Virus record (IMG/VR): IMGVR_UViG_3300030103_003268
Coordinates: 30,477 to 94,476 of that record
Origin: a virus
Strand: one strand, 5' to 3'
DNA: 64,000 bases
The notes beneath the pieces were generated by a model. It did no database searches and had not been told where the DNA came from. It worked only from the letters and a program-made list of their open reading frames with translations. Numbering within the stretch: position 1 is the stretch's first letter; each line of letters opens with the position of its first letter. A program made the position numbers and the translations under genes. Shown here piece after piece: positions 16,241 through 60,304 of this stretch.

Positions 16241-16595
16241 CCTCCAACAATATAAACAGTTCTAATGTTTCTGTTGTGGAAAATGGGCCAACTCCTTGAA
16301 AGTTGGTTCTATATACCATTTTTTTATCATTTGGGGCAGGATTACCTGTGTTTCTAAAAAGACCAACTTCACGAATAACTTGTCCTTGAATATTCTGCCC
16401 ATCTACTGACACTTTAACTTCAATAACATTTAATGTGGAATTTGTAATTGTTAATGTTGTAGAGGCGGATAAAGGAACATCTAAATCGGTAGCAGTTGGA
16501 CTAGTAGCATTTCCCCCAAGTCCAATTTTTGCGGTATCAAAGAGGTTATCTTTAATATGTGTGGCAATCAATGTTTTTAATTCATCTGTAATCAT
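16233..16595 (-). CDS. Tail/baseplate protein (fibre-collar-like)
   Basis: IGLGG...TDLDVPL...IREVGLF pattern. Confidence 0.55.
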   Translation of the reverse strand: MITDELKTLIATHIKDNLFDTAKIGLGGNATSPTATDLDVPLSASTTLTITNSTLNVIEVKVSVDGQNIQGQVIREVGLFRNTGNPAPNDKKMVYRTNFQGVGPFSTTETLELFILLEVE

Positions 16596-19500: not shown

Positions 19501-22500
19501 CTATATGAATATATCTAGCATATTTTTCTAAAGTCCCAAATGCACCACCAATAACAGTATAGTAATAATTTACTGATTCATTAGCACTAGTAAATATTCT
19601 TGTGTTGTTTAAATTAGAACCAAAGGGGCTATGATAGCCTCTTTCATCGGGAGGTAAAACCCTATAAGAACTATCTGTCTTATTAGCATTGTTGATATTA
19701 GATGAACCAGTGTTGGGTTTAAATCTATAAGAACTGGCATAAGTGTTTAGTTGAGATTTTCTAGGATAAAAACTAGGAAAACGAGAGTTAGACTTTTTAA
19801 TAAGAGGATTGTTTAATGTAAAATTACCAAAACCGATTTCTCTAGTTTTATAGTATGGTTGTCCAAAACGACTAGTGTTATCTCCTGCAACAGTTGTGCT
19901 TTCTACATTTAGTGGAACTGAGCCGCTAGCCCTTACTGTGGGATGAGGACGAGTTAAAATTTTACCTCCCCATAAGTGGGAGCCATTGACTAAAAGTAAA
20001 TCACTAACTGGTTTGTCAATTTTATGTATGGTTTCACTAACAGAAAAATTATGTATAGTTCTATCTAAATAGATTCTAACTAGCACAGAAGAGGTTGTCT
20101 TAACTAATTTATCAAAAACTAAACCAACGAATGTTTTATTTGCACCAACAAACAAAGCATCTCCTATTTCTAAAGTGTAGGCATTTGCATTAGCAATATC
20201 AAAAAAGTTATCATTTGTAGAACTATCAACAGCACTTACTGTTCCTACTTCTGTAAATGTAAAATCACTAGTATCTGTAAAATAATTTGTTTTTCTACCC
20301 AAAGTGATAGGAATATACGGGGCTAATTCAATTTCTGTAATATTGTCTTTCTTTGAAGTAGAAACAACTTCAAAATCAATTAAAGTATTTACAGTATCAA
20401 AGGATGATTCTCCTGCACTACCATGTTCGTCCTTTAATTTTGATTGAAAAGCAAAGTCATTTGAAATAGATGATGGCTTATGAATTGCATATCCAATTGC
20501 GCCAGCACTTGCATTTGCACTACTTGAAACCAAAGAGTCGCTTTCAACACCGCTTGACATTGTGATTTTGTTTCCTGATGTAAAAATTAATCCTTTATTA
20601 GCGGCTCCTGTAAGAGAAGAGGGTTTGCTTGTAGCAAGATGGGATGAACCAAGTGCCTTTGAGAGAATGTAATTCTTTTCTGACTCTTTGTAAATTTTAT
20701 CTCCTGCTGAAACGCTAGTAAGTAGTCCCGTTGATATATTTATTTGTTGTAATACACTAGAGCCTCCACCAGAATAATCACTAAAAGAAGTTATTTCTCC
20801 TAAAAAGCCATTTTCTACAAATATTTTATCACCTGCAACTAAAGGTGAATCAAAACCCTCGGCAATCATTTCTGTTTTTATAAAGGTTGAACCAACAGAA
20901 CTTGCTAAAACCGAACCTGCGGGAACAGCAGATTGTAATTTATTATATGGACTATTACTAGAATAAATAATATCTTCACTAAACAAAGTATTTAGATTTA
21001 CAATAGGAGAAAGTAATTTGCTAAACTTGTCTCTACCCTGAATTTCCATAATAGTCTGCCCATTCTCCTTTCTATTTTCAATATTTTCAACTTCGCCGTT
21101 AAATCTTTCAATAAAGATTTGATATTGTCCTTTAGTAAAACTTAACGGGTTAGTATGATATGAGTCTGTATCAAATGATAAAGTAATCATTCCTTTTGTG
21201 GCATCACAAGCAGTAATAGTAGCAAATCTTTCATTATGATTTAATGATGTAAAAGAGACATACATCTTGCTAAACCTACCATTTAGTAGTGAAATATCAA
21301 GCATAAGTGTCCCGTCAGTTGCGTTATATGCTCGCCTGTTAAGCACATCTCCGCTTGTTGGGGTCGTGGACTGTGCGGCGAAAACCCCGTCGTTCTCCGT
21401 TCTTACATAGGGGTGTGTGGATGATTGGAAGGTTATCTCTTGGGTTGTTCCCGACAAGCCAGCAATAGACTGAACAATTAAAATATTATCTCCTAACTTG
21501 ACCTCATCTCCTGCATTTAGAACATCATCTAAATTATATTGAGTATTGAAAGAAAATACTGCATTAGAAGTCTTTGAACTATATGTTGCGGCTAAAGGAA
21601 AAAATTCGTTCATATCACCACGATGAATATTATGTCGCACACGGTATGCGTCAAATTCTTTCACCTTTCTCGGCATAATTCTGCCGTTATCAATAATAGA
21701 TGTCTCTGCAAACCCACCCTTTCCATCAATTGATTCTGTATTTGTGTGGTCATAAATATTGTAAAGAAGATTAGATTTAGTCGGTGAAAAATCATAACTT
21801 AGGTATCGTAGGGGGCCGGTGAATGTAGGAGTAGAAATAACATCGTCTGCGATTCTTCTTGCATTAATGTGGCTTTGCTGATAATTTGTTGTATCCTCCA
21901 CAATTGTTCCTCCTTCATTATAGGTGCAATTTATGGATTGTGCCGCATCCAAATCTCTTAGTTTATCAGTCAATTTTATCTTGTATGAGAATCTGCTGTA
22001 ATCTACAACAGACTTACCAAAGTCTTGCATCGTAGTAAAAACTTTACAATTATCTGCATTTGATAGTGTATAACTGTTGGCTGTGCCGCTTTCCCTCATA
22101 GCGTAAAACTTGCGATTATGGTTCAACTCATTGGGCTTATCCAAACTATCATTATAGAAATAAAATAGCGGTCTTGCCACTGCCATTCTTCTCCACAATT
22201 CTCCTTCAAAATCATTTGATGAAGAACCTAAACTATCATCTTGGAGCATGCCCATTGAGACAGCAACAATGCTTCCATTCTTGGTCATTTGGAAAATAAT
22301 GAACTTGGTATCTTTTGGGATTTCATTTCCTAACTTCGGTTCAAATTCAAAAGCATCACCATATTCGTCTTCTGTTAAAACCTCAGTAATTTTAGCAAAG
22401 TGATGTTGGTATGGAGTGTCCGAATAAAGCAAAACAAAATAATCATTATCTGTTAAGTTAGTAGCAGTAGGGTTAAATCTAATCCCTGTCGTGGTCAATG

Positions 22501-22699
22501 AATCATAGCATTTGATTCTAAATCCCTTCGTTGTATTTAGATTAGAATTTTCTGTAATGGTTCCTCCCCAACCAGTAATCGCAACAGAAGTGTCTTCTGT
22601 TGTAATTGCAGTATATATTCTATGCCCGTCTGTTGGGCTACTGTCCTTCAAATAAGGATTTGTTGGGGCATTAAAAATGTCATCTAATGTCAAAGCCAT
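16592..22699 (-). CDS. Large tail tip / hub / host-recognition protein (2035 aa)
   Basis: Size, Ser/Thr-rich beta content, IQGRD and LRVGDIVNV hub-like motifs, position after tape measure. Confidence 0.7.
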   Translation of the reverse strand: MALTLDDIFNAPTNPYLKDSSPTDGHRIYTAITTEDTSVAITGWGGTITENSNLNTTKGFRIKCYDSLTTTGIRFNPTATNLTDNDYFVLLYSDTPYQHHFAKITEVLTEDEYGDAFEFEPKLGNEIPKDTKFIIFQMTKNGSIVAVSMGMLQDDSLGSSSNDFEGELWRRMAVARPLFYFYNDSLDKPNELNHNRKFYAMRESGTANSYTLSNADNCKVFTTMQDFGKSVVDYSRFSYKIKLTDKLRDLDAAQSINCTYNEGGTIVEDTTNYQQSHINARRIADDVISTPTFTGPLRYLSYDFSPTKSNLLYNIYDHTNTESIDGKGGFAETSIIDNGRIMPRKVKEFDAYRVRHNIHRGDMNEFFPLAATYSSKTSNAVFSFNTQYNLDDVLNAGDEVKLGDNILIVQSIAGLSGTTQEITFQSSTHPYVRTENDGVFAAQSTTPTSGDVLNRRAYNATDGTLMLDISLLNGRFSKMYVSFTSLNHNERFATITACDATKGMITLSFDTDSYHTNPLSFTKGQYQIFIERFNGEVENIENRKENGQTIMEIQGRDKFSKLLSPIVNLNTLFSEDIIYSSNSPYNKLQSAVPAGSVLASSVGSTFIKTEMIAEGFDSPLVAGDKIFVENGFLGEITSFSDYSGGGSSVLQQINISTGLLTSVSAGDKIYKESEKNYILSKALGSSHLATSKPSSLTGAANKGLIFTSGNKITMSSGVESDSLVSSSANASAGAIGYAIHKPSSISNDFAFQSKLKDEHGSAGESSFDTVNTLIDFEVVSTSKKDNITEIELAPYIPITLGRKTNYFTDTSDFTFTEVGTVSAVDSSTNDNFFDIANANAYTLEIGDALFVGANKTFVGLVFDKLVKTTSSVLVRIYLDRTIHNFSVSETIHKIDKPVSDLLLVNGSHLWGGKILTRPHPTVRASGSVPLNVESTTVAGDNTSRFGQPYYKTREIGFGNFTLNNPLIKKSNSRFPSFYPRKSQLNTYASSYRFKPNTGSSNINNANKTDSSYRVLPPDERGYHSPFGSNLNNTRIFTSANESVNYYYTVIGGAFGTLEKYARYIHIDESVARLFLYVNSDILPYSSLRKDSLMHSIGGSMSKTLNNYNLFLIDNKNVGDSTLESGKRQLLKDEKFQTLSFSSETDLSKLKRFGLMRLTELCVDFLFNPVNPEKEIPKRIPESLASVVSLTGSSITVIGNIASISGTTINFTTSVTINDTTNIFDEKGQFIGAKSGTSTGTAHTLTSAGILTNNGSAASKAIVITGLTGTFLKGRNEKDSFHQLDRFKFHPLKCCVIPETSGYGSDATAVSNPADAAAVANDTGSGATVLSIPVDTEIVLPIAFESGNYSTLSSSADTFPIRPLGHYFSNIHGKPYNGLIGVVLDRFGIEDAGAFKLAEGNTTQILKGVGEITVNADEHLILQSDAHFKGFEYVGDTSTSYTTSRPYTADGAMMVFKPRLFLQTSTPANFTTGTINSSNGNLHKNAIDVATSDKHNCFLKFIDLTGCYLVPEAGRDIVGTSVSTGTKDLAKSMQEVRVSQLIHVVSHEVNNGDIDEHHLITDRALAAGAYRILQPNETCFYDFMPKELHLNTLKSEYTKKANKNEVYIDEKESYFYKDGNDKSGDNSYRDEGVLSMFVAIDLDKQSTDDGIVIEDSEQFTNILPTGDYSLYYSDGKNSKRIQTSSKTIRSTLHSIVLNEMFNAKGVVSVSETFTASSNEQLKIDPTRACIGSTVSIGLEGEDLINELLEQEGIEFTTTSTDTPMYLAPNYQGVDLYSAIRYILDRKNMKLVEENNVFKIFPESENSLRTNITIDDSGEFLISEFDKVSTLFDFFNEINVYGNAHKAIRKDLRSIQKRGRKTLEVVDNTLLTQEEVDKKATNLLQIHSRLNQKLSFTMQNKGISQLRVGDIVNVFIPRENIEMNEFIVLEMEHQLTGFIKLQLGRYSKDLSDVFSELLISSKETKAALRSNDLNTQEVSFNFLDTVDTKELKLLVRKRSAGGAGRTLGFGAALGFTTALGFTGGAITITDLVEEDLA

Positions 22700-23871: not shown

Positions 23872-24495
23872 TCAAGGAAGAACATTGGCTACGACAAATT
23901 CTAAAGAAAACGAAACATCAATACTTTCACCTGTCATCTCATAAGAAAAACTTTGAATAAACCCGCTTAGTCCCTTTGATGTGGAAGAGGTAGGAAATGA
24001 AAATGAACCAACTACATTTGTATTATCCTTTTCTAAAGCATTTCCTCTTGCTCTAAAGGTTAAAGGAATTTGGACTGTGCTTGCTCTTGCTGCATAATTT
24101 TCATCAACCTTTGAATCTATTAAAACAACTAATTGATTAATTGCTTGATAAGAAGCCAGACCTGTTGAATCAACACCAGATGCAATCATTTGAGCCACTT
24201 CTTGCGCTGTAAAAGTTAGGTTAGTCGCACTTCCGCCTGATTTAGTGTGGCTTCTTCTTATTTCTGTATCAACAATAATTCCATTTAATGAAATTCTTTT
24301 ATTAGACATTCCTAAATCTAAAGCAACGGTAGTAGATTCTCCTGTTGCTAAACCGCTTAAAGGAACAGGAATAGCAGGAATCGTTTTATCAACCGAAACA
24401 CTTACGCTATTTACCTTCAATGGAATAGTATCAATTGTTGCACTACTACCGCTATGCTTTTGTAATTTTAGATATACATAACTCATTTTAATCAC
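23872..24495 (-). CDS. Distal tail protein-like
   Basis: Directly after tape measure; beta-rich. Confidence 0.5.
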   Translation of the reverse strand: MIKMSYVYLKLQKHSGSSATIDTIPLKVNSVSVSVDKTIPAIPVPLSGLATGESTTVALDLGMSNKRISLNGIIVDTEIRRSHTKSGGSATNLTFTAQEVAQMIASGVDSTGLASYQAINQLVVLIDSKVDENYAARASTVQIPLTFRARGNALEKDNTNVVGSFSFPTSSTSKGLSGFIQSFSYEMTGESIDVSFSLEFVVANVLP

Positions 24496-26171
24496 CTAAA
24501 TGTGCTTGAAGAAGTGCTTCTGTTAATTTTGGAATTAATCATGCGACCAATTTCATCTGCCATTCTACGCATTTCTGCCTTTGAAGAATCTTTTGCATTA
24601 ACAGTAATGTTGAAGTTATTTACAACAGATTTTCCTCCAACCATCTTTTTGCTATCTCGGTTGGAATGAACTCTTGCTCCTCTCGGCAAATTTACCAATT
24701 CTGGGCCTTTTTCGCCAACAACAGTTAATCCTCCTTGAGCGATACCTCCGTTAGCCATAAAGGGTATTTTATCTGTAATTGTTCTCATAAATCTATACAT
24801 TATAACTCCAAGCAGACCCGCTAACCAAACAGGCGCACCCATAATGAAAGCACCCACTAGAACAATAAAACCAGCAACTCCCGCAATATATCCTATTTTT
24901 TCCGAAAAATTACTTCCTACACCTCTAAGGTAGTCTGTAAATCTTATCCATCCTTGTTTAAAGAATTCTACAAATATCCCACCTATGAATAATAGACCTG
25001 CTCCAATAATTCCAACTGCTACACCGATAATACCAACAGCAATTTTAATCATACCATCTATAACATCAGATAGGTTTCCATCACCGAAAAAGCCATTCCA
25101 TATATCAGTAATCCCTGACCAAATCATAGAAATTGAACCCATTATTACTTGACCTGCTAATTTTATTGCTGGTAATGCTTCTTTAAATGCCGCTATCAAT
25201 GTTTTTCCAATTGTCTTGTATAAGATATAAAAGACGGTTAGGGTCAGAGTCATATATATTGTAGCCTTTAAGAAAAATTGAAGAGCCTTCAAAAAGAAAC
25301 GAGCAATATTTTTTGGCTGTAATGCTGTGAATACATTATTCATCGCTAAAATCGCCCTGCCTATTTTGGTTTTTTCTAATATTTTATTTCTTCTTCTTTC
25401 CATGTCATAGGTTCTTTTTTGCTGCTTTTTAAGTAGGGTTTTTAAGTAGTCAGGTTGTTTGCCTTTCGCTTCTAATTTTCTAATTGATACTAGTAGGTCT
25501 TTTTCATCTTTTTTTGATTGTTTTATTTTTCTTGTTCTTTCAAAATCTTTACCTACTACTTTTGTTATTCCGCCCAACCCTTTCTTAAAATCACCTAAAG
25601 TCATTTTAGGTAATTTGGCAAGACCGACCATTCCAGCCGCAAGAGTAGAAAATAGGCTACTGCTCTCTTTATTTGCGCCCGAAGCACTATCTCTAACGGC
25701 TCTTACTGCACTTCCCATACCATTGAAAGCAGTTGCCACTTTATTGACTAATCTAAACATTCCAGGCGGTAAAAACCCATACATAAATCTTCTAGCAGAA
25801 GCGGCCTCAAAACCAAGTAATCTAACCTCTTCTTTTGTTGAAGTCATAAAAGTAGCAAGGTATTCTAAGGTTGTTCCTCCCGCTTTTCTATAATCTCTAA
25901 GGCTTTTTATGCCAAAAGTTAGCATATCATTATTTAGTTTTAAAGTTGTATTAAGAATTTTAGTTCTCTTTTTTAACCCTTCTTCGTCCTGAACTGTTTC
26001 TCTTAATTCTTGTTTATTTAATTTCTTAAGTTTTAATGCTTCCTCTTGAGTTTTATTTAAATTATCATAATATTTTTTCATAGACGCTAACGCCTTATTC
26101 ATTTCATTTAATGAATCTGTTAAGGTATTAGTTTCTTGAGTCAAAACGGTGACATTACTCATATCTATCAC
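24492..26171 (-). CDS. Tail tape measure protein
   Basis: Helical N-terminus, hydrophobic segments, C-terminal ANGG...VGEKGPELV motif; follows chaperone. Confidence 0.8.
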   Translation of the reverse strand: MIDMSNVTVLTQETNTLTDSLNEMNKALASMKKYYDNLNKTQEEALKLKKLNKQELRETVQDEEGLKKRTKILNTTLKLNNDMLTFGIKSLRDYRKAGGTTLEYLATFMTSTKEEVRLLGFEAASARRFMYGFLPPGMFRLVNKVATAFNGMGSAVRAVRDSASGANKESSSLFSTLAAGMVGLAKLPKMTLGDFKKGLGGITKVVGKDFERTRKIKQSKKDEKDLLVSIRKLEAKGKQPDYLKTLLKKQQKRTYDMERRRNKILEKTKIGRAILAMNNVFTALQPKNIARFFLKALQFFLKATIYMTLTLTVFYILYKTIGKTLIAAFKEALPAIKLAGQVIMGSISMIWSGITDIWNGFFGDGNLSDVIDGMIKIAVGIIGVAVGIIGAGLLFIGGIFVEFFKQGWIRFTDYLRGVGSNFSEKIGYIAGVAGFIVLVGAFIMGAPVWLAGLLGVIMYRFMRTITDKIPFMANGGIAQGGLTVVGEKGPELVNLPRGARVHSNRDSKKMVGGKSVVNNFNITVNAKDSSKAEMRRMADEIGRMINSKINRSTSSSTFR

Positions 26172-26909: not shown

Positions 26910-28574
26910 TCACCCCTGCAAAACCCAATGAGTCTTAACTGTGCATGAGTTTAATGTTCTCGGCATAACTGTTCCTTCAACGGTAATTGGGCCTTTATCA
27001 TCAGGAATAGTAAAGTTTGCAGAACTAAGGAAATAGTCTTGGAACTTCATCAAAATCTGTTCTCCATTTGCTTTATCAAATTGTAGAGTTAAGAGAGTAT
27101 CTGTTGCACTACCTACTTCTGTTTGATTTAACAATTCTTCAAACAATTTATCATCAGTCACCATAGCAGTAAAAGAAACTTCATAGGTTCTTTGTGCTGG
27201 AATAGCGTCTTTGATTGATTTATTACCAATACCCACAAATCTCTTGTCTTGAAGATTATTGTTGATGGTCAAAGTAAGGTTTGTAATTTTCAAGAACTGT
27301 TGTCCAAATACGCTGAACAATCCACTTGAAAAGAAGAAAGGCTCTAAAAATTCAGCATCTTTATCAGTTGTGCTTGAGTCATTGGCTTGCTCAAAATTAA
27401 ATAATTGACGATTATCAGTAATTCCGCCTCTTGCTTCATAATTTTCATCTTGCTCTAATTTGTGAACTGCTCTTGCATTTAAGTCAAGAGTCATTTTAAT
27501 TTCTTCATTTTCGTTAGCCGTCATTGTTAAGGTATTGACTCGGTTTCCTCTAGCAATACGAACAAAAGTAGTATCTTCTGAACCGGATGCAGTATTCGTA
27601 GTTAATGTGCTAGTCTTAGCCAAAGTTTGTTCTAAAGCAAAAGAAGGTAGTTTTTCACCATTTGCTTCTTCAAATTTGTAAGTAATTGGGTTTGTTAAAG
27701 CAGTTGCAGTAGTAGTTGTTCTATTGACTAATTCTGTAGTTGCCGCAGTATCAAATCCGTTAAGAAGAGGTGGGAGTAAAGTATCTGATGCTCTCGCTGT
27801 TTTGTAAAAGATTGGGCCTTGTTCTAAAAATGTAGTAATTGTGTGTTCTCCAGTAGCATTAGATGATTCAAGATAAACATGCCGTCTATCATCAACAGTA
27901 GGAGTTCCATGAGCATTTAATACATCAGCAGGAGAATGACCCGAAGGGTTCCCAAATGTAGCAGTAATTTCTGTGCATCGTCCCAAAGCATAATATAGAA
28001 AAGCACCATGATTTGCGACAAGATTAAGATTTGCTGCACCTGCGGTTTCAATGCCTTTATATTGATAAGTATAGTTTCTTGAACCACCGAGAGACAAATT
28101 TAATTGTTTCATCTCTACCTCAACATCAGGGAAGGTAGCACTTTCAAGAATACCTAACCAATTATCAGCATTAAGCCTCTTTGTGTTAGTAGACTTTTCA
28201 CCAACGCAAGGTGCGCCATATCCTCTAATATGAATAAAATCCCCAGAAATAATTGTTCTTGGGTCAGGGCTTAAAGTAATATCATTGTCAGTATTACTAG
28301 TAATGGTATGGGTAGAAATAACAGTTGTCTGTGCGGCATTTGCATATAATTCAACAATGCAACCCACATATAAGTTATTAACCATCAAGAAATGAGTTGC
28401 CCAACTACTATGGACTTTTACTGTATTTGTATTTGCGGCGTTATCTCCGCTTCCTGTGCTGTTTGAATGGTCAAGTGGAATATACAAATCCACTTCGGGA
28501 ACCATTGTTAAACTTGCTTGACTTCCTAAAAATATATCTTCTGCGCTCATGTTATTTCTCCCCCTTCCTAACAA
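26910..28574 (-). CDS. Major tail tube protein
   Basis: ITNLTLTINNNL...QRTYEVSFT...IPDDKGPITVE tube-like C-terminus; position. Confidence 0.75.
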   Translation of the reverse strand: MLGRGRNNMSAEDIFLGSQASLTMVPEVDLYIPLDHSNSTGSGDNAANTNTVKVHSSWATHFLMVNNLYVGCIVELYANAAQTTVISTHTITSNTDNDITLSPDPRTIISGDFIHIRGYGAPCVGEKSTNTKRLNADNWLGILESATFPDVEVEMKQLNLSLGGSRNYTYQYKGIETAGAANLNLVANHGAFLYYALGRCTEITATFGNPSGHSPADVLNAHGTPTVDDRRHVYLESSNATGEHTITTFLEQGPIFYKTARASDTLLPPLLNGFDTAATTELVNRTTTTATALTNPITYKFEEANGEKLPSFALEQTLAKTSTLTTNTASGSEDTTFVRIARGNRVNTLTMTANENEEIKMTLDLNARAVHKLEQDENYEARGGITDNRQLFNFEQANDSSTTDKDAEFLEPFFFSSGLFSVFGQQFLKITNLTLTINNNLQDKRFVGIGNKSIKDAIPAQRTYEVSFTAMVTDDKLFEELLNQTEVGSATDTLLTLQFDKANGEQILMKFQDYFLSSANFTIPDDKGPITVEGTVMPRTLNSCTVKTHWVLQG

Positions 28575-29285: not shown

Positions 29286-29498
29286 TTAATACCCCTCATG
29301 ATAATAATCTCCATATGCTCTTGCATCTGCCGAATCATTTAATAAGTCTAATTTACAATCTTCACAAAGATTTTCAGGTTCGTAGCCCATTTCTCTAGCC
29401 ATTTTATTACCCATTTCATCATATTGGCTATATGTAGCAGGTTGTTTCTTACAGCGAACACACATATTTTTAATTATATTTTTCCACATAATAATCAA
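29286..29498 (-). CDS. Small Zn-finger protein with WxxIIK leader
   Basis: MWKNIIK; CVRC...CEDC. Confidence 0.6.
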   Translation of the reverse strand: MIIMWKNIIKNMCVRCKKQPATYSQYDEMGNKMAREMGYEPENLCEDCKLDLLNDSADARAYGDYYHEGY

Positions 29499-30811
29499 TC
29501 CAAGAAATAAACTAAATCTCCCTTGCCTTTCAAAATATCCATAGCCTCTTTACGAAGTATATCATACTTTTCTTTTGTTGAAATATTACCACCCGATTCG
29601 GTAATTAGAATACTTTGGTCGTCATGCCGGATAATTTCAGAAGCAACTAACTTAGTCGTTGCTTCGTGAATTGCAGACGGCACTCTATTATCACCGGCAA
29701 TATATGAAACAATAACTGAATTATTTCTATGATAGGGATAGTCCTTCAAAAAGAAAATACGCCCCTCTTCATTAATTGTCCAGAAATCACCAAGCCTTCT
29801 TAAGTCTTCTTTATCTGTAAATACTTCTATTGTGCAAACTGTCGGTATTTCATTTTCTGTGGTAAATGTTAATGGTGTTGAAAATGCTCCGCCCGTTGAG
29901 GAATGACTCAAAGTAATAGTTGTTGAATCTACAATAGCAGCAATTGTGGTTGAAGTCACTATATTAACTGCTCCGCTAACCACCATACCTACTGCTAATT
30001 TGCTAGAATCAGCAACAGTAAGGTTTGTTGAGTTATTGCCCGAACATGACTGTTTTATGGTGGCCTTGATGACACAATCTGCCCCATCATCCCCCGAAAG
30101 TAGGGATGAGATGAGAATTTGTTTCCCGTTTGACTTGGCCTTCGCACCATAGAAAAAGTCAGAAATGGCTAGATTAGAAGAAATAAGACTTTTTGGTGCA
30201 GTTGCTTTAGTAAATTGAGACATTGAAGGAAAAGACTCGTTTATTAAAGAAACAATATCATTAGCGGTAGTTTTTATTCCAAAGGTTGTATTGAATTCAT
30301 CATTTCCTAAACTACTAACATCAACTTCGCTTTTCATTTCAAAAGATACGCCACTATTAGGCAACTGAAGAATAATAGAATGCAAGTCTCTATAATTGTC
30401 TTGTAGAGTAATTTTTGCTTGAGCCGAAGCAATTTCAATATATTGACTTCCTTGCCACAATTGAAGAGAAACAATCTTTCTTACCTTCATCTTTGATAAT
30501 TGCACAAAACCGACATGACCTCCATAATACGCCTTATGCGGGAGGCGAGAAAATTCAAAGTTATGGTGTTCATCCTTTGTGATAATTGGTCGGTATGAAC
30601 GCTTCACCTTGTCATCAACAATACCCTCCACCCTTTTGATGATTGACCCGACTTGAGCCAATGTGGGGAAGGTAGATGCTGAAAAAGCGGGAACTTGTAA
30701 GAGATTCGCAACCTCAGTAGCGTTGGTATAATGTCCTCTTCCATCCGAATATAGCGGATTAATTTCCGTAAAATCGCTAGGCGAGATTGTTTGTCCCATT
30801 TCAAGCACCAA
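29495..30811 (-). CDS. Head-tail adaptor with inserted domains
   Basis: YTNATEVANLL N-terminus and VSYIAG...VPSAIHEATTKLVA C-terminus typical of gp6/gp15-type adaptors. Confidence 0.65.
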   Translation of the reverse strand: MVLEMGQTISPSDFTEINPLYSDGRGHYTNATEVANLLQVPAFSASTFPTLAQVGSIIKRVEGIVDDKVKRSYRPIITKDEHHNFEFSRLPHKAYYGGHVGFVQLSKMKVRKIVSLQLWQGSQYIEIASAQAKITLQDNYRDLHSIILQLPNSGVSFEMKSEVDVSSLGNDEFNTTFGIKTTANDIVSLINESFPSMSQFTKATAPKSLISSNLAISDFFYGAKAKSNGKQILISSLLSGDDGADCVIKATIKQSCSGNNSTNLTVADSSKLAVGMVVSGAVNIVTSTTIAAIVDSTTITLSHSSTGGAFSTPLTFTTENEIPTVCTIEVFTDKEDLRRLGDFWTINEEGRIFFLKDYPYHRNNSVIVSYIAGDNRVPSAIHEATTKLVASEIIRHDDQSILITESGGNISTKEKYDILRKEAMDILKGKGDLVYFLD

Positions 30812-32517: not shown

Positions 32518-33168
32518 TCACATTAACCATTTAGCCCAAGCCGCACCCTTTTGGATTGCTGCACTTAAATGAAGCCCGCTTGAAGGAGGCTCATAACTCA
32601 TTTGTCCTTGAGCATCAATCCAATAAGGACGACCATATCCATCTGTTCCGTTTGGAGGAATAGGGTAGCCTGTTCCATTGTTCATGGCTCCTTGCATTTG
32701 CTGATACTGTTGAGTATTTCCAGTAACATTGGCTAAAGCCATCCCTGCTGATGGCTGTTGCATACCTCCGCCATTAAATCCTTGTGATTCAAGATATTGC
32801 TGTTTAGCCATCTTTCTCTGCATAACAACTTCAGTATTGATTGCTGACTGTAATAACTTTTGAATATCTAAGTCAATATTTTCTTGAGTAATTCTTTCAT
32901 ATTCACGGAGAGCATCTCTATTTATTGTAAGGCTGCTCCCATTAGAATCAAAACTTAACTTAGCCAACATTTGAGAAACAACTCTTTCAACAACATCTTC
33001 CATCAACTTTTCAAGAGCAATTAAGAATTGTTCTCCATGATATTGAAAAAATTCTTCAACATGATTTTCTTGTAATGAAAGTAAATTGTTCACTGTTTTA
33101 AACTGTGTATCGCTTTGTGCTTGAACTGCACCCAACACGGTGCTATTGCTTGTCCCTAGTATTCCCAC
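32518..33168 (-). CDS. Hypothetical Gln/Gly-rich protein with amphipathic C-terminus
   Basis: 216 aa; ends AAIQKGAAWAKWLM. Confidence 0.7.
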   Translation of the reverse strand: MGILGTSNSTVLGAVQAQSDTQFKTVNNLLSLQENHVEEFFQYHGEQFLIALEKLMEDVVERVVSQMLAKLSFDSNGSSLTINRDALREYERITQENIDLDIQKLLQSAINTEVVMQRKMAKQQYLESQGFNGGGMQQPSAGMALANVTGNTQQYQQMQGAMNNGTGYPIPPNGTDGYGRPYWIDAQGQMSYEPPSSGLHLSAAIQKGAAWAKWLM

Positions 33169-33170
33169 TT

Positions 33171-33839
33171 CTATTCCTCCTTAATTTTCTGTTCTTCTGG
33201 TAATTCGTTTTGTGCTTGAACACCGTTCTTTAGCATCAAATGGTTTAGCCTCTCTGTCATAATGTTCATTTCTGCAATTAAGCGAATGACTTCATCGGTG
33301 GCCGTCTTTGTGTCTGCTAAGGCGGGTGGGGTTATAAACCAACCTGCCGCCGTAAGGGACATAACATCTTCCTTTGTTAGTGTTTTAATTGGGCCACCTT
33401 TAAGCATTTTAGGCATTCTTGGTTTAAAGGCACTAAATTCAAGCCCATGTTTATCTGCTAAAATCTGTTGTTGTAGCATTTCTAGTTGCATATAAATTGA
33501 AGCATGTTTAGGGCAATAAGTTCCCATTAATGGCCTTCCTTTAACCACTCCATCTAAAGGCATAGGTGGCCGCATATAATCTCCTTGTTCCCAAATGTGA
33601 TGGAAACCACAAACAACACATCTATCCTTAAGGTTAAATTTCTTTCCATACTTGATACCTAGAAACTTTTTTGGTTCTGCCTTTAAAACCAATTTGAGTT
33701 CTTTTAGTTGAGTCTTAGGTTTATATGAAATAAACTTGTATTCTTGCACAACACCGCTTGCTCTTGCCTGTTGAAGTGGCGAAAGCGAAGGATTAAATTG
33801 CTGTGGAGCGTTTTGTCCTATAATATTGTTTTGATACAT
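33171..33839 (-). CDS. Hypothetical protein with CxxC...CxxH zinc site
   Basis: CVVCG...YCPKH. Confidence 0.7.
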   Translation of the reverse strand: MYQNNIIGQNAPQQFNPSLSPLQQARASGVVQEYKFISYKPKTQLKELKLVLKAEPKKFLGIKYGKKFNLKDRCVVCGFHHIWEQGDYMRPPMPLDGVVKGRPLMGTYCPKHASIYMQLEMLQQQILADKHGLEFSAFKPRMPKMLKGGPIKTLTKEDVMSLTAAGWFITPPALADTKTATDEVIRLIAEMNIMTERLNHLMLKNGVQAQNELPEEQKIKEE

Positions 33840-33844
33840 AATAA

Positions 33845-34525
33845 TCAGTAGTCCTTTATCATTGTAGTAATTCCTCTATAAACCATTTCAGGGTCAGATT
33901 TTGCAGATACAATATATTTGAAACAAGGTATTCCTTTATCGTTTAACTTTCTCATACCGTATTTAAATGGTTCAAAAATTTCGTGTTTATCTATTTCTTG
34001 ATTTTCGGCTAATGGATATTTTTTTCCCCAAATATCATATTTATTTGCCCAAATTCCAACTGCCATAGGAAAATCAGAGTCTCTTTTCTTTTTACCGTTT
34101 GACCAATTATTTGAAATTATTGAATCTACTAAAAATTTCCATGCTAGTTGATGGTCTAAGTTTGAGTTGCTATCCAAATGCCTATGGTCAATCATAAATA
34201 TAACATACTTAACTTTTCTATTTTGCATGTCTTTTTCCCATTCTTTCCAGTAAATTGCTTCTCCACCAATATCTGCGCTTCTTACTGTATGCGAATCTCC
34301 GTCTATTTTGACATTTTTTCTCGTTGCTCTATGTCTTCCAACGGTTCTTTCTTGTATTTGTGGGACTTCTCCTCTTGTTCTTAATTGATGACTAAGAGTT
34401 GTTTTACCGACCATTGTTGCTCCATAAACCCCAAAATTAATAGCATGAATCTTTTTGTAAAATCCTATGATTGCTTCACCTACAAGAATAGCAAAACCTG
34501 TCATTAAAGACATTAATGCCCCCAC
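33845..34525 (-). CDS. Small GTPase, Ras superfamily (Arf/Sar-like)
   Basis: G1 GATMVGKTT, G2 T (ERT), G3 DIGG, G4 NKYD, G5 SAK; hydrophobic N-terminal helix. Confidence 0.88.
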   Translation of the reverse strand: MGALMSLMTGFAILVGEAIIGFYKKIHAINFGVYGATMVGKTTLSHQLRTRGEVPQIQERTVGRHRATRKNVKIDGDSHTVRSADIGGEAIYWKEWEKDMQNRKVKYVIFMIDHRHLDSNSNLDHQLAWKFLVDSIISNNWSNGKKKRDSDFPMAVGIWANKYDIWGKKYPLAENQEIDKHEIFEPFKYGMRKLNDKGIPCFKYIVSAKSDPEMVYRGITTMIKDY

Positions 34526-34731
34526 CCGTTTAACAAAGTGTCAAACAGAAAACCCATGATATTTATATCAAAAACACCAAGAATGTTTCCAACAAGGAAG
34601 CCTGAAAGACAAACGCATGAACCCCAAAAAAGCATCCTCATTTTCAAAAAGAAAATGTCAGCAGAATGCGCTCTTTGTTGATTATAAGCGTAGTCCGAAT
34701 CGGAAAAGCCCATTATGTCTCCAAAGACCAC
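34513..34731 (-). CDS. Small membrane protein
   Basis: Hydrophobic segment MLFWGSCVCLSGFLVGNILGVF. Confidence 0.7.
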   Translation of the reverse strand: MVFGDIMGFSDSDYAYNQQRAHSADIFFLKMRMLFWGSCVCLSGFLVGNILGVFDINIMGFLFDTLLNGWGH

Positions 34732-34742
34732 TTCTTCACCGC

Positions 34743-35126
34743 CTATTGTAGTGCGGCTAAGAACTCGTTTCCTACGCTATTTTCTTCTTCCTGTTGAATA
34801 GGTTGATAGAAAGTAGTGTTGTATTGCTTTGCGCTTTCACGCATTTTAACTCTTTGTTGTTCGTCCCTAGCCTTTCTTTCCCAGTATGCCGCAATTTTAC
34901 GGTCTAAGAGCCAAAGTTCAATTCTATCATTAAGAGATAAGTCAAAAATAGCCTTCATTACCATTATTGCCCCAATGGTGCCTAGACCGAATAGAACAGA
35001 ATGAGCCAATGGGCCATAAGGAAAATTCATTCCAAATGCCGCATATGCCCAAACATTTGTTCCGCTTAAAGCACCAACAAACAGAATTGTCATAATTAGA
35101 CGAGTATCTTGACTTAATGCTGCCAT
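34743..35126 (-). CDS. Two-TM membrane protein with charged C-terminus
   Basis: Two hydrophobic helices followed by charged helix. Confidence 0.7.
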   Translation of the reverse strand: MAALSQDTRLIMTILFVGALSGTNVWAYAAFGMNFPYGPLAHSVLFGLGTIGAIMVMKAIFDLSLNDRIELWLLDRKIAAYWERKARDEQQRVKMRESAKQYNTTFYQPIQQEEENSVGNEFLAALQ

Positions 35127-36184: not shown

Positions 36185-37546
36185 TCAAAGCAAGTTGGTA
36201 ATCTTTCCTTGACCCTTGAAGTAAGAACAACCAGTTTCAGCCATTGTGCGGTAAAGAGCCTTGTTTCCAAGGTTGCCGACACCGAATGGGTTTCCGTTGC
36301 TGATACCGTCTTCAAAGTATTGAGTTGGCTTCATCACAGATAGCCACAAATGGTCAGTATCAAGGAACAACATATCGCTAATTAGGCTTGTATTTCTTCC
36401 AGTAGAAGGCATAGCCGCAACAGGAATCAAAGGAATGTCGTAGTAAGTAGAAACGCGGAATCCGACTTCTTGACCCTTAACACCACGAACACCGTTCACA
36501 GTTGGAACGATTTCCTTTCTATCCATAAATCGCTCTTGAGCCTGAAGCAAGTCAGAAAGCGTTTGAAGCGTATCATATCCCGTAAGAATGACCTTTGGCG
36601 AACCACCAGCAACACGAAGTCTGCGAACCATGTCGTTAATCACAGTTAGCGTCAATTGTCGTGCTTCTGTTGAAAGGTAGCCATCTCCGAAAGAAACTTC
36701 TGCATCCAAATACTCGTTTCCTGAATCACTTCGTTGTTTTCCGTAAAGATGGTCAATTGCTTGGTCAGTAGCAGTATCAACAAGGTTTCCACCAGAATCG
36801 TCAGCCAATTCGGTAATTTCAGCCGAGTTGCTTACAATCTTGTAAAGAGAAGTATATCCTCTATCAATAGCGTTTGTTGTGGCGTATGATGTAGTTGGGG
36901 AATAGTTCTCCAAAGGCATAACAAGCATTTGATTCTGGACTTCCGCGTGATGCTTACCCATATCCTCTCTCAATTGAGCACGAATATCACCGATACCATC
37001 GTCAATTTGAGCCATTTCCATAGCCAACTCACTGAAAGCGAATTGATGAGCAATGATTTTTGGGCTGGTAAAGAGCGTATCATACTCAGGAGCAATTGAA
37101 ATCAAACCATCTGTGTTTGAATCAAGACTGGCGTTTTCGGGAACACCACCGATACGGTCAGCACGAAGGGCATCAAGACCATACAAACCATCAGAAAGAG
37201 CCGTATTGGAAGCGGCGGTAATATCAAGGAAATTACCAGCACCGCCAGCAGGTCGCTTCTTTAGGATTCTCCAACCACTTGAAGAATAAGGTCGCTTTGC
37301 GATAACAGACAATGCGTTGCATTCTCGGTTTAGCATAGACCAGACTTTTTGACCATAAATCTTATTGTAAAGATTACCAGCAATACCCGTCGTTACGCCA
37401 GCGGCGTTTATTGCGCCATCGTGAGCGACATGAATACCGCTAACGGTTCCTGCCGCTTTGAGCAATTGGTTGCTAATATGACCAGTTGCGCCCGTTCCGT
37501 ATGTTGCTGCTTCTAAATCTGCAATAGTGTTAATATATCCTACCAT
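36185..37546 (-). CDS. Major capsid protein (HK97 fold)
   Basis: 453 aa after protease; GGVPEN, PKIIAHQF, YYDIPLI, FLDTDHL; strong RBS. Confidence 0.85.
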   Translation of the reverse strand: MVGYINTIADLEAATYGTGATGHISNQLLKAAGTVSGIHVAHDGAINAAGVTTGIAGNLYNKIYGQKVWSMLNRECNALSVIAKRPYSSSGWRILKKRPAGGAGNFLDITAASNTALSDGLYGLDALRADRIGGVPENASLDSNTDGLISIAPEYDTLFTSPKIIAHQFAFSELAMEMAQIDDGIGDIRAQLREDMGKHHAEVQNQMLVMPLENYSPTTSYATTNAIDRGYTSLYKIVSNSAEITELADDSGGNLVDTATDQAIDHLYGKQRSDSGNEYLDAEVSFGDGYLSTEARQLTLTVINDMVRRLRVAGGSPKVILTGYDTLQTLSDLLQAQERFMDRKEIVPTVNGVRGVKGQEVGFRVSTYYDIPLIPVAAMPSTGRNTSLISDMLFLDTDHLWLSVMKPTQYFEDGISNGNPFGVGNLGNKALYRTMAETGCSYFKGQGKITNLL

Positions 37547-38837: not shown

Positions 38838-41765
38838 CTATTCTTCGGTGGGAAGGGGCAATTTGTTATACCTATCTTCATAGATATTCCACTTTCCTTC
38901 ATCCCCTTCCTTATCCGCAGGTGTTTGTTTGTAGCCAGTCCAAGCAAGCCACATTTTTTCTCCATCCACATCTAACACTCTATAATGCATTTTTGTTTCA
39001 AACTTACTGCCTTTCAAGAAATATTCATGGTAGCCATCCCTTTGAATACCTAAACTAATTTTGCCTGAATCTACTAATTTACCCTTAGTTACCGTTTTTG
39101 CTACTTCTGCTGGATATTTACCTGCCGCACCAAATAAGTCAAACATTTCTTCTTCGTTTTCAATATTGATAGTCCAAAACATATTTTCTGTTTTTAAGCC
39201 AATAGCGAAAGTTAAATTATCATCCTCTCTTGCGTAGATTTTAAATTCACCCTCTCTTAATTCTTTAGGAGTTTTATATTCCCCTTCAACTGCTTTAATA
39301 TCTTCTTTTAGCATAGCATATTTATCATCAAATCCACTCCCATATCGGCAGTTTTTATATTCTTCCGCTATCTCTTCAGTAGTCTTAATTTCTGTTGCTT
39401 CTTCATATAAAACATCACAATCCTTAATTGCAAAAATATCATCTCTAAAATCTTTTATTTCTTCTTCAACGCTATTTGTGCTTACTCTAAGTTTTTGTTT
39501 AACTGCTTCCCAACCGTCTTCTTCAACCTTTGCTTTCAATTGTTTTTCATATTGAGAAATAAGATTTTCCCTAAGTCTTTTACAACAATCTCCGTCAGTA
39601 TCTACATCAATTTGAATTACATCTTCTTTTTCTGCTTCATCAGCAATTTCTTTCATTCCTATTAACTCAGCCATTTTAGTAAAACTCTTTTTGATTTCTT
39701 CTTCTTGCATGATTTTGTCATCATCAGCAGAGAGTTTATCTTCTCTCTCACTGATACCATCTCTAAGAATAGCCCATTTTTTTAACTTCTTTTCATCAGA
39801 ATCAAGAACCTGTTCATATAAATCATTATGTTTTTCTTTTAAGAAATTATGTAATTGTCTTGGAGTTTGTTCTCCATTCATTTTTAAGTGTTGAAAAATA
39901 GCGACAGTTAATTCACTTTGTTTAGTTTTCATAATATCAATGGCTTGTTGTTTCCACATATCTAAGTCCATTGTAGCATTCTTAGACATTAGATTATCTT
40001 CTTCATAACCATAAATAGTAAAACCGTCTAAATCATATTTAATGATAACATTTGCTTCTCCGTGAATGTGGTCTGTAATCTTAACTCCTTTTGTAAATGC
40101 TTCAACATTATAGTTAAGAGACTTTTTAGTGTCTTGAGAAAGTAATTCTAAAGTAATTAACTTATCAGGATATTCAACTTCAGGAATTTCAATTGGTTTA
40201 GCAGAAAACAAACTAAACCCATCTCCTTTCTTTTTGACTTCATCAACCTTAACTCGGATAATTTCCCCAACATCAACAGCCATTTTTGTATTTAAAGCCT
40301 TACCCACATTCAAGTATTGCTTCTTATCAACTTCAACTGTTCCTTCCATTTCACCTGTGATTGGCCCAACTCCAACAGTATAAGAATATAAATTGCTTTT
40401 TGTCTTTTTCTTTTCTAATACAATAACATCTAGGTCAACAAACTTCTTTAATTTAATCCACTTAGGATTTTTCTTTGTTCCTATGTAATAAGTTGAAGTA
40501 GCGTCTTTAATAACAACTCCTTCCGATGCAGGATTTTTCATAATTTCATCAGCATACTTTTCTATGTCTTTTAAATTATCCGCTTGTCGTGTATCCTTTT
40601 TTGAAGGATAAGCGATTGCCTCACTAGTCTTTGAAGAATAATTGTTGAATAAAATTGTCATTCTACTTTCTAACTCTTCATCAGCAAGAGTCTGGGACTC
40701 ATGGCGAATAATATCAAAAACATGACATCTTAGTTTAGCATCTTTATATTTTCCTTTAAATACATGAGCGATTGTATCTGCTCTATGAAGGGGGTCATCG
40801 CCGTCAAAAAGAACTAATTCTGCATCAAAGATACAGTCTCCATATTCTTTTTTCTTTAATTCCTCAACTTGTGCTTTACATTTATCAGTAATATCTTTCT
40901 CATTATAAGAATAAACTTTTACTTTATCGTCAATTTTGTGTAGTTGAACTCTCATTCCATCAAATTTTTCTTGAACATACCAATTGCCACTAAATCCTTT
41001 TAATTCTTTAATATCATCCACTTCAAAAATTCTATACATTGGTTTATTAGGAACAATAAATTGGGAAATAGATTTTTTCTCATCACTTGGGATAGATTTT
41101 TTAACGCCCTCAATATCAGTGATGGTTGCCCATTCTTCTTTATTATTCTTAGATAAGAAAATTAATTCCAACATATCCATAGCAGCCCTTACTTTAGATT
41201 CAACTTTCTTTGAGTCTTTTCCATCCCCATAATGCTCAATAATATACAGGGCTATGTCGTCCACTTCTAGGTCAAGCCCCATAAGACCCTCCGTAATTGT
41301 GTCGGGAGTCATGTCTTTAACCCTGTAAATGTCATCAGATAGTGCTTTATTGTCGTCCCTTATAGCATAATGCACAAATTTAACCATGCTTTCGGGATTA
41401 TCTAGCAATTCTTCAAGGACACTATCCTTGAACATGGCGGCGAAGGGGTCGGCTACGATGGACGAAGAATACCTTAAAAGTTTAATATTTTCATAAAGTT
41501 CTTTGGCTTGGCGTGAAGAAGGGTCTTTGACATCTTTATCGTCTAAATCCTTTTCATCAATAAAGTTTTTCATTTCTTTGCCAGCCGCATCTGCCTCATT
41601 ATATGATTCAACAATGTTATCAACTGCTTTACGCCAGCGACCCGAATATTCTGTTGGGTCTTGCCTTGCAGATAAATAGGCTACCCGTGTCTTTTCAAAG
41701 AGACGAAGAATTTCTTGAGAAGGTTGTTTATCCTTCTCAATAGAAGCCAATTTCATACGAATCAT
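38838..41765 (-). CDS. lig: Multidomain ATP-dependent DNA ligase
   Basis: QEKFDGMR (motif I), FDAELV, FDII, EGVVIKD, WIKLK, OB domain; large extra N- and C-terminal regions. Confidence 0.9.
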   Translation of the reverse strand: MIRMKLASIEKDKQPSQEILRLFEKTRVAYLSARQDPTEYSGRWRKAVDNIVESYNEADAAGKEMKNFIDEKDLDDKDVKDPSSRQAKELYENIKLLRYSSSIVADPFAAMFKDSVLEELLDNPESMVKFVHYAIRDDNKALSDDIYRVKDMTPDTITEGLMGLDLEVDDIALYIIEHYGDGKDSKKVESKVRAAMDMLELIFLSKNNKEEWATITDIEGVKKSIPSDEKKSISQFIVPNKPMYRIFEVDDIKELKGFSGNWYVQEKFDGMRVQLHKIDDKVKVYSYNEKDITDKCKAQVEELKKKEYGDCIFDAELVLFDGDDPLHRADTIAHVFKGKYKDAKLRCHVFDIIRHESQTLADEELESRMTILFNNYSSKTSEAIAYPSKKDTRQADNLKDIEKYADEIMKNPASEGVVIKDATSTYYIGTKKNPKWIKLKKFVDLDVIVLEKKKTKSNLYSYTVGVGPITGEMEGTVEVDKKQYLNVGKALNTKMAVDVGEIIRVKVDEVKKKGDGFSLFSAKPIEIPEVEYPDKLITLELLSQDTKKSLNYNVEAFTKGVKITDHIHGEANVIIKYDLDGFTIYGYEEDNLMSKNATMDLDMWKQQAIDIMKTKQSELTVAIFQHLKMNGEQTPRQLHNFLKEKHNDLYEQVLDSDEKKLKKWAILRDGISEREDKLSADDDKIMQEEEIKKSFTKMAELIGMKEIADEAEKEDVIQIDVDTDGDCCKRLRENLISQYEKQLKAKVEEDGWEAVKQKLRVSTNSVEEEIKDFRDDIFAIKDCDVLYEEATEIKTTEEIAEEYKNCRYGSGFDDKYAMLKEDIKAVEGEYKTPKELREGEFKIYAREDDNLTFAIGLKTENMFWTINIENEEEMFDLFGAAGKYPAEVAKTVTKGKLVDSGKISLGIQRDGYHEYFLKGSKFETKMHYRVLDVDGEKMWLAWTGYKQTPADKEGDEGKWNIYEDRYNKLPLPTEE

Positions 41766-59976: not shown

Positions 59977-59992
59977 TGTAATCTCCCCTGTT

Positions 59993-60304
59993 TCACATAC
60001 CCATCCTACTATAATAAGAGGTATCAAGATGGAAATGTCCACCACCAAAATCGACGATATACCCAAATTGCTTAACTCTATCAATGTCGGAATTAAATTT
60101 CGCTCTCGTATCTAAAAGTTTTTTATAGAGTTCAATAAACTTATCAGAAGAAATGTTGTTTTCCATATCCTTAATCAAATTCATAAATCCTTTGCGGTCT
60201 TGGGGTGCAAGTTTATATGCCATTTTTTCAAAGGACTTTTCTAACTTAGCAACAAGTGTGTTTCTTTTGGCTCTTTCGTTTTTTAAGATAATTTCCCAAC
60301 TCAT
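59993..60304 (-). CDS. WxxILK-leader cassette protein
   Basis: MSWEIILKN. Confidence 0.7.
   Translation of the reverse strand: MSWEIILKNERAKRNTLVAKLEKSFEKMAYKLAPQDRKGFMNLIKDMENNISSDKFIELYKKLLDTRAKFNSDIDRVKQFGYIVDFGGGHFHLDTSYYSRMGM

Follow-up and report, generated by a model that had tools for sequence, protein, structure and literature searches.

A conserved late-gene cassette of magroviruses encodes a divergent, Arf-like small GTPase with a predicted membrane anchor

In Haloferax, vesicle formation is driven by an operon whose products are ArvA, a small GTPase, ArvB, and ArvC, a Zn-ribbon protein (PMC10927574). An amphipathic N-terminal helix is a defining feature of the Arf family, and PDB structure 8OUN is that of GerdArfR1, an Asgard ArfR protein (bioRxiv 10.1101/2024.02.28.582541). 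Egress of archaeal tailed viruses has been called ‘completely uncharacterized’ in a review (PMC10791045); no egress system has been described for the Magrovirales, and a holin-like system has been proposed only for another order of Poseidoniales viruses (PMC11706807). In the surface ocean, magroviruses rank among the most abundant viruses (PMC5434244, PMC11706807). Here we describe a cassette of five genes, one of which encodes a small GTPase, in a 64,000-nt stretch of viral DNA (the window) that comprises bases 30477–94476 of a 94,476-base virus record rated as complete by CheckV (IMGVR_UViG_3300030103_003268). An earlier reading of the letters of the window (the original prediction) had proposed that these genes form a GTPase-controlled module for membrane remodelling, egress or lysis, or the marking of an assembly site. 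We consider it very likely that they form a real, conserved and membrane-associated GTPase cassette; what it might do for the virus is graded below.

The five open reading frames (ORFs) of the original prediction were all recovered on the minus strand with unchanged coordinates, and their tight linkage was confirmed, with intergenic gaps of −1 to 11 nt. In the direction of the genes they encode a 127-aa membrane protein (TM127, 34743..35126), a small membrane protein of 72 aa (TM72, 34513..34731), the GTPase (33845..34513), a 222-aa protein with a Cys3His zinc site (Zn222, 33171..33839) and a 216-aa protein rich in Gln, Gly, Asn and Met (QG216, 32518..33168). The cassette shares the orientation of the late genes, among which it is packed without gaps, between the gene of the HK97-type major capsid protein (MCP, 36185–37546) and the tail tube gene (26910–28574), both on the minus strand; the location ‘between head and tail genes’ given by the original prediction thus holds in the window’s clade, while in other clades the position differs. 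Ribosome sites resembling GAGGTG stand in front of TM127 and of the late genes on either side, the TM72 stop overlaps the GTPase ATG as TAATG, and neither promoter-like nor terminator-like signals rose above background in the cassette region. The tight packing, the ribosome sites and the lack of promoter or terminator signals suggest that the cassette is part of a continuous late operon that extends from the capsid gene to the tail genes.

To follow the cassette beyond the window, we compared the 80 closest IMG/VR loci, picked by GTPase similarity. The order MCP, three small genes, TM127, TM72, GTPase, Zn222, QG216 was kept wherever the contig reached, and the five genes were therefore co-conserved in every such locus; the lack of co-conservation that had been named as one outcome that would refute the original prediction was not seen. 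TM127 and TM72 were each present in 78 of the 80 loci, TM127 always two genes upstream of the GTPase. Median identity to the window protein was 86% for the GTPase, a figure inflated by the selection on GTPase similarity, a bias that does not affect the other proteins: 83% for TM127, 82% for QG216 (70 loci), 77% for Zn222, 75% for the MCP, 74% for TM72, 44–52% for the three small upstream proteins and 35% for the downstream protein of 568 aa. The cassette proteins are thus about as conserved as the MCP or better, and their upstream neighbours are far more variable.

The same layout was found at a much greater distance. Two distant GTPases, P0133 and P0136, both about 30% identical to the window GTPase, led to 84 loci (80 and four, respectively), which we refer to as the far clade; its records include complete viruses of 103–115 kb whose MCP and family B DNA polymerase (PolB) are 42–52% and 30–33% identical to those of the window. 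In all 84 loci the order was a protein of 170–272 aa with one transmembrane (TM) segment, a small membrane protein of 72–100 aa (with one TM segment in most loci), the GTPase, a zinc protein of 256–348 aa and a Gln/Gly-rich protein of 190–272 aa. A 2-TM protein of 77–94 aa ends the cassette in the 80 P0133 loci and is missing from the four P0136 loci. Overall, three further magrovirus lineages share the layout, with GTPases about 30% identical to that of the window, and the two with most loci add the small 2-TM protein; the GTPase family is thus found in four magrovirus lineages. In a third clade, known from metagenome contigs, the first protein is a 2-TM protein of 136–138 aa. The GTPase and the zinc protein were encoded side by side or close together in 84 of 84 distant loci and in 72 of 81 near-clade loci; in the remainder the contig is cut. 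The far-clade cassette adjoins a homologue of window ORF 60949–61623, in part of that clade it directly follows a giant ORF of 2200–2350 aa, and in the two complete far-clade records checked it lies about 20 kb from the MCP gene. The same gene layout at a different genomic position indicates that the cassette moves as a unit.

Profile–profile comparison defined which of these proteins are homologous between clades. Between the near and far clades, hhalign matched the GTPases with a probability of 99.9%, the zinc proteins with 93.7% (E 2e-7) and the Gln/Gly-rich proteins with 56% (E 1e-4), and the GTPase is one of the few proteins of the cassette region that can be recognized by sequence between the compared clades. 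In agreement with this, a hidden Markov model (HMM) of the far- and third-clade Gln/Gly-rich proteins had QG216 as its only match among 140 genome ORFs (E 6e-5, next best 0.24), and jackhmmer connected QG216 to loci L161–L164. The homology of three proteins across clades defines a firm core trio, in which the GTPase is joined by two soluble partners that co-evolve with it, the zinc protein and the Gln/Gly-rich protein. Small membrane proteins always sit in front of this trio, and between the window’s clade and the others they can be matched by position only: the counterparts of TM127 have 137–272 aa and one or two TM segments, and those of TM72 have 69–100 aa and mostly one. Comparison of far-clade with third-clade membrane proteins did reveal a relationship (hhalign 86–97%). 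We rejected the far-clade proteins as homologues of TM127 and TM72, since hhalign failed and their HMMs matched nothing in the window genome.

The GTPase most likely starts at the ATG at 34513 (222 aa) rather than at the GTG at 34525 (226 aa), since most homologues begin there and this ATG forms the TAATG overlap with the upstream stop. Complete G1–G5 motifs, as first described, were confirmed: G1 GATMVGKT, the switch-I Thr in RTVG, G3 DIGGE, G4 NKYD and G5 SAK. G1, G3 and G4 were kept in 140 of 140 distinct family sequences from three lineages and a G5-like motif in 133, and in a wide alignment reaching down to 20% identity the only invariant columns were the GTPase motifs and the Asp that ends strand 4. 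Single-sequence matches remained below threshold (MMR_HSR1, E 9e-4, with 19.7 bits against a cut-off of 21.9; TIGR00231, E 5.5e-5; Rab33B, E 0.085). An AlphaFold2 (AF2) model, with a mean predicted local distance difference test score (pLDDT) of 67 and a predicted template modelling score of 0.65, consists of a long N-terminal helix followed by a Ras-like domain, with poorly modelled switch regions (interswitch pLDDT <50). Foldseek matched it with a probability of 1.00 to G-alpha Ras-like domains and Rab33, and VIA-align gave Z 10–11 over 133–165 residues to LokiRag (Asgard), Gs, Arf6, SR-beta, Arl and Sar1, with Der, EF-Tu-type and other G domains at most 1 Z unit behind these top matches. 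Judged by its motifs, the protein is a genuine small GTPase of the Ras superfamily (TRAFAC), and the same motifs predict that it binds GTP; the lack of GTP binding that had been raised as an objection is not what they indicate. The catalytic Gln of switch II is Glu in the window’s clade and Gln, Glu, Asp or His in the others. Between helix 3 and strand 5 (residues ~140–153) lies a polybasic insert with a Trp, which is common to all magrovirus clades and may be a membrane-facing patch. Our search found no longer, fused forms of the GTPase, which is weak evidence that none exist.

The N-terminal helix of the window GTPase is hydrophobic, as originally noted, with a Kyte–Doolittle (KD) value of 1.9 over 19 residues, an Eisenberg mean hydrophobicity (<H>) of 0.71 and a hydrophobic moment (muH) of 0.18. 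The near clade as a whole gave KD 1.8–1.9, <H> 0.71 and muH 0.18, and the far clade gave a median KD of 1.13, with <H> 0.51 and muH 0.18. Two Lys residues directly follow the helix, and by the positive-inside rule the hydrophobic helix and the Lys-Lys pair predict that the G domain lies on the cytoplasmic face of the host membrane. The analogy with the amphipathic helix of Arf proteins, which the original prediction had drawn, failed: the helix is hydrophobic, has a low moment and is anchor-like, and is in this respect closer to that of SR-beta. SR-beta carries an Arf-like cytoplasmic G domain on an N-terminal hydrophobic anchor, and its structures gave VIA-align Z 10.0–10.7 (2fh5_B, 5ck4_A, 1nrj_B), tied with Arf, G-alpha and Rag. 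In contrast to the window protein, which has no SRPRB match, SR-beta is eukaryotic and serves protein targeting. No neighbour of the GTPase had a Pfam match to an SR-alpha/SRX-like (longin-like) partner, and the model of Zn222 was too poor to judge.

Family placement was approached with profiles. A profile built from magrovirus sequences alone, searched against PDB at E <0.01, matched GerdArfR1 (8oun, E 4.9e-5) and Arl8/Arl10 (E 5e-4 to 4e-3); the sole other match, to a concatenated RecA, was set aside as a P-loop artefact. The wider family profile matched 8oun at E 1.2e-12, followed by Arl3, Arf1, Arl8, G-alpha and SR-beta, and among 21 members of the wide family Pfam assigned Arf in seven (best E 1.9e-15), SRPRB in six and G-alpha in three. 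The agreement of the PDB profiles and the Pfam tally places the family in the Arf/Sar/SR-beta/G-alpha branch and nearest to Arf in the broad sense, but two tests of Arf membership fail: the helix is not amphipathic, and the window GTPase had no match to Pfam Arf (PF00025) at E up to 0.1, short of the curated threshold. In the protein Atlas, its own clusters were viral (Uroviricota) and the next named neighbours were prokaryotic Arf-type G domains. By sequence, the nearest relatives thus appear to be Arf-type at the profile level only, and the magrovirus proteins form a very divergent family of their own, restricted to viruses. The window protein shares with Arf proteins a Ras-like G domain, T-x-G in switch I, D-x-G-G in switch II followed by a conserved Trp, a membrane-directed N-terminal helix and probably also the role of a membrane-bound nucleotide switch that recruits partners. 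It differs in being about 40 residues longer and virus-encoded, in the polybasic insert, the hydrophobic helix and the Glu that its clade has in place of Gln, and in having partners unrelated to known Arf GTPase-activating proteins (GAPs) or guanine nucleotide exchange factors.

The family proved to be isolated. When 1.84 billion representative proteins were searched exhaustively with a HMMER profile, 78 matched at E ≤0.001, many of them fragments of the same family, and the full-length distant members that could be traced were on contigs of 59–104 kb. Close relatives amounted to 352 cluster representatives. The gene was absent from 185,578 of 185,579 species genomes, and this, together with a base composition that is even across the cassette region, speaks against the recent host-derived singleton that had been considered as an objection. 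The one genome with the gene carries it on a mis-binned viral contig: NZMJ01000024.1 (L165) is a 12.2-kb magrovirus contig in a metagenome-assembled genome labelled Maricaulis sp., an alphaproteobacterium, the same contig is listed as viral in IMG/VR, and its placement almost certainly reflects an error of binning rather than a host. No PHROG family matched the GTPase, in keeping with the earlier remark that small GTPases are unusual in tailed viruses, and the ‘phages’ collection gave no match. The distant members P0132, P0187 and P0169 had no match in IMG/VR, and P0187 none in metagenome contigs. The Atlas suggests that some of the most distant members (among P0159, P0169, P0181, P0184 and P0187–P0198) are bacterial Arf-type G domains. 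Some family members are labelled ‘GTPase SAR1 family protein’ in IMG, and annotation pipelines have thus already noticed the G domain, though it has not been discussed: our literature search found no magrovirus paper that mentions a GTPase, the main papers on magroviruses and archaeal tailed viruses being silent on it, with an annotation in supplementary tables possible. Among virus-encoded GTPases, the Rab of mimivirus (PDB 5xc5) is also of the Ras superfamily and gave VIA-align Z 9.0; unlike the magrovirus protein, which forms an orphan family in an archaeal tailed virus, the giant-virus GTPases are close copies of host Rab in viruses of eukaryotes.

Hydropathy bore out the claim that two membrane proteins are encoded upstream of the GTPase. 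TM127 has two TM-like segments (residues ~10–28 and 43–61) and a highly charged C-terminal tail, a layout that, judged from its sequence, is holin-like though generic, and TM72 has an acidic N terminus and a single hydrophobic stretch of ~38 aa at its C-terminal end, with no charged tail. TM127 had no match in Pfam, PHROG or PADLOC, and no cassette protein of the near or far clade matched a defence system in PADLOC. As in phage holin cassettes, these are small late proteins with one or two TM segments and, in TM127, a charged C-terminal tail, and the cassette of other magrovirus clades stands at the edge of the block of structural genes. In contrast to holin cassettes, TM127 and TM72 match no holin family in Pfam or PHROG, and their neighbours are a GTPase and orphan proteins, with no endolysin. 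The original prediction had recognized neither holin nor endolysin, and none was matched among the ~30 mostly larger window ORFs that we scanned, a selection by which the window was not fully tested for them. We know of no holin system that contains a GTPase. Among the late genes, TM-like segments occur in TM127, TM72, the GTPase and only three other ORFs, namely 24495–26171 (559 aa, internal), 29495–30811 (438 aa, one marginal) and 57688–60084 (798 aa, N-terminal).

The zinc site predicted for the first downstream protein was confirmed in the alignment as a Cys3His pattern, which in the window’s clade reads C74-x2-C77 ... C109-P-x-H112 (CxxC...CxxH). Cys74, Gly78 and Thr-Tyr-Cys109-Pro are invariant in the Zn222 family, His112 is nearly so, and a nearly invariant Gly-Arg stands seven residues before Cys109. 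The family comprises 1018 cluster representatives, and the 120 listed were all unnamed or ‘hypothetical protein’, none with a Pfam domain. Zn222 had no profile match in PDB, no Pfam match among 21 members and nothing above chance in the Atlas; its AF2 model was poor (pLDDT 58), and its fold matches, all with Z <5, were not interpreted. The zinc finger of ArfGAP proteins has the form CxxC-x16-17-CxxC and a catalytic Arg. We rejected Zn222 as such a finger, given its spacing of C-x2-C-x31-C-x2-H (C-x4-C in the far clade) and the Pfam result. QG216 was correctly described as Gln/Gly-rich, with a conserved central helical segment between low-complexity stretches rich in Gln, Gly, Asn and Met; the amphipathic end also attributed to it was not supported (moment 0.24 against a shuffle maximum of 0.45). 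Its C-terminal tail is Trp/Ala-rich and found only in the window’s clade.

The best analogue for how the cassette might act is ArvABC (OapABC), likewise an operon that combines an Arf-like GTPase with an N-terminal membrane helix, a zinc protein and a third small protein, at an archaeal membrane. Pfam lists ArvA under MMR_HSR1, the same family that gave the window GTPase its best Pfam match as a single sequence; the likeness to ArvA is drawn from its description. The gene order differs, and the magrovirus cassette adds two to three membrane proteins. The models for OapB/ArvB (PF09846) and OapC/ArvC (PF09845) had no match in the whole 94-kb genome, with Haloferax and Methanosarcina controls positive, indicating that the cassette is not a member of the ArvABC system.

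From the anatomy of the cassette, its late-operon position and analogy we infer a role in membrane remodelling, egress or the marking of an assembly site, and we favour the following mechanism. Late in infection, the membrane-anchored GTPase would work as a nucleotide switch that, in its GTP form, brings the zinc protein and its Gln/Gly-rich companion together at the membrane. The former, whose zinc knuckle has a nearly invariant Arg next to it, would be a candidate GAP or effector, and the three proteins together would control the small holin-like membrane proteins. The outcome would be a timed change of the host membrane, with opening or remodelling for virion release favoured over an assembly platform. 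That the cassette acts on the host membrane late in infection is, on balance, slightly favoured, and the late membrane-anchored GTPase switch as a whole is held tentatively, with a little more doubt than belief. Among the possible purposes we rank egress highest, above an assembly platform, host takeover and a virion-borne role, and taken by itself it is still doubtful.

Several observations weigh against this mechanism. The far-clade helix is only weakly hydrophobic (median KD 1.13), which leaves some doubt that it is a true TM anchor. In the window’s clade, the Glu that replaces the catalytic Gln suggests that hydrolysis may be slow or dependent on a partner, and the zinc protein has no recognizable GAP fold in Pfam, PDB or fold searches. 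TM127 and TM72 match no holin family, no wall- or S-layer-degrading enzyme is encoded nearby, and the lack of detectable homology of the membrane proteins across clades suggests that they may be less firmly tied to the core than gene order would imply. The selection of the close loci flatters the conservation of the GTPase.

The alternative that survives best, which we consider unlikely, is that the anchored GTPase and its partners mark an inner-membrane site at which heads, tails and packaging complexes are assembled or joined, with the low-complexity Gln/Gly-rich protein forming a condensate-like matrix. The Gln/Gly/Asn/Met-rich composition of QG216 and of the N termini of the far-clade zinc proteins would suit such a matrix, and in the window’s clade the cassette lies within the morphogenesis operon, from the MCP to neck and tail genes; in other clades it abuts the homologue of ORF 60949–61623, called terS in the original prediction, which heads the packaging genes. 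However, the position of the cassette relative to the structural genes is not fixed, and no cassette protein resembled a known morphogenetic protein in Pfam and PHROG scans. To our knowledge, tailed viruses do not need a membrane for assembly, which also counts against a platform.

A takeover or exclusion function is improbable. Here the viral GTPase would mimic or compete with a membrane GTPase pathway of the host (Arv-type vesiculation, protein targeting or division), and the result would be a stop of division, a block of superinfection, or vesicles that serve as decoys or carriers. The precedent is the control of vesicle release by archaeal ArvA and its Zn-ribbon partner (PMC10927574), and the GTPase family has traits in common with SR-beta, namely an N-terminal anchor with an Arf-like G domain and the SRPRB assignments in six of 21 members. 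Against it, the cassette is packed with late structural genes and not with early ones, the genome has no ArvB or ArvC domain, and no cellular homologue was found that is close enough for mimicry.

We regard as very improbable that the membrane proteins and the GTPase are packaged or tail-associated and act on the membrane of the next host at genome delivery. Some phages do eject small membrane-active proteins, and the cassette stands among virion genes, but the GTPase requires cytoplasmic GTP, none of the proteins is similar to known ejection or tape-measure proteins, and the five lack the leader M-W-x-x-I-L-K that marks inserted genes beside them in related viruses. That the GTPase is a recent host-derived or decaying passenger with no dedicated role can practically be dismissed, as it is already contradicted by the 352 close cluster representatives, the invariant catalytic motifs in four lineages, the normal composition and the absence from cellular genomes (one mis-binned contig apart).

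Returning to the favoured mechanism, it is possible, if doubtful, that the cassette is the magrovirus egress machine, in which the anchored Arf-like GTPase times or drives the opening of the membrane by the small membrane proteins. If this were true, archaeal tailed viruses would for the first time have a known egress system, and the cassette would be a prokaryotic-virus counterpart of Arf/Sar-type membrane remodelling. The cassette is among the best-conserved parts of magrovirus genomes and, as a candidate for a late function at the membrane, is concrete and can be cloned. It is also an instance in which a virus of prokaryotes has recruited a small GTPase switch, and the orphan zinc protein may be a new kind of GTPase regulator.

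Related viruses carry extra genes within the cassette. In the window’s relatives, these are inserted at exactly two junctions, TM72/GTPase and GTPase/Zn222 (for example L012:5056–5688, L018:5503–5997 and 6675–7214, L024:6666–7130 and L057:6666–7232), and every one of them starts with a leader of the form M-W-[FKWE]-[NDKE]-I-L-K, which is also present on window ORF 29286–29498 (MIIMWKNIIK) and on none of the five cassette proteins. A family of mobile genes tagged by this leader appears to use the two junctions as insertion hot spots. In about 25 far-clade loci (L127–L159) a MazE/AbrB-type (SpoVT-AbrB) protein of 54–89 aa is encoded between the GTPase and the zinc gene (PF04014, E 1.7e-5, just over the cut-off; for example L141:8740–8937 and L137:2306–2524). 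In the third clade an extra protein of ~256 aa, very acidic and with a long poly-Asp run, lies between the small membrane gene and the GTPase (L166:7229–7996, L168:868–1641, L171:6435–7178, L175:7217–7996) and has no family match. The giant ORFs precede the cassette in L084, L085, L118 and others; the window has its own tail-region ORF of 2035 aa (16592–22699, minus strand), and for the giant ORF of L118 phmmer found no similar ORF in the window genome and Pfam and PHROG gave no match.

The window genome was assigned from its gene content and from gp088 of Poseidoniales virus YSH_150918, a homologue of the GTPase with 77% identity, which together identify it as a magrovirus, one of the tailed viruses that infect the abundant marine group II archaea. 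The minus strand of the window encodes an ATP-dependent DNA ligase fusion, the portal, the prohead protease, the HK97-type MCP and the tail tube protein, and the plus strand forms the replication arm, with an RFC-like AAA+ protein and a split PolB. The ligase domain (PF01068, E 6e-28) is part of a 975-aa protein (38838–41765, minus strand) encoded directly upstream of the prohead protease, and thus in the head gene block and not in the replication arm. PolB is split over two plus-strand ORFs about 1.1 kb apart, 4992–6680 and 7817–8710; the exonuclease domain is in the N-terminal ORF, and the polymerase domain begins there and is completed in the second ORF.

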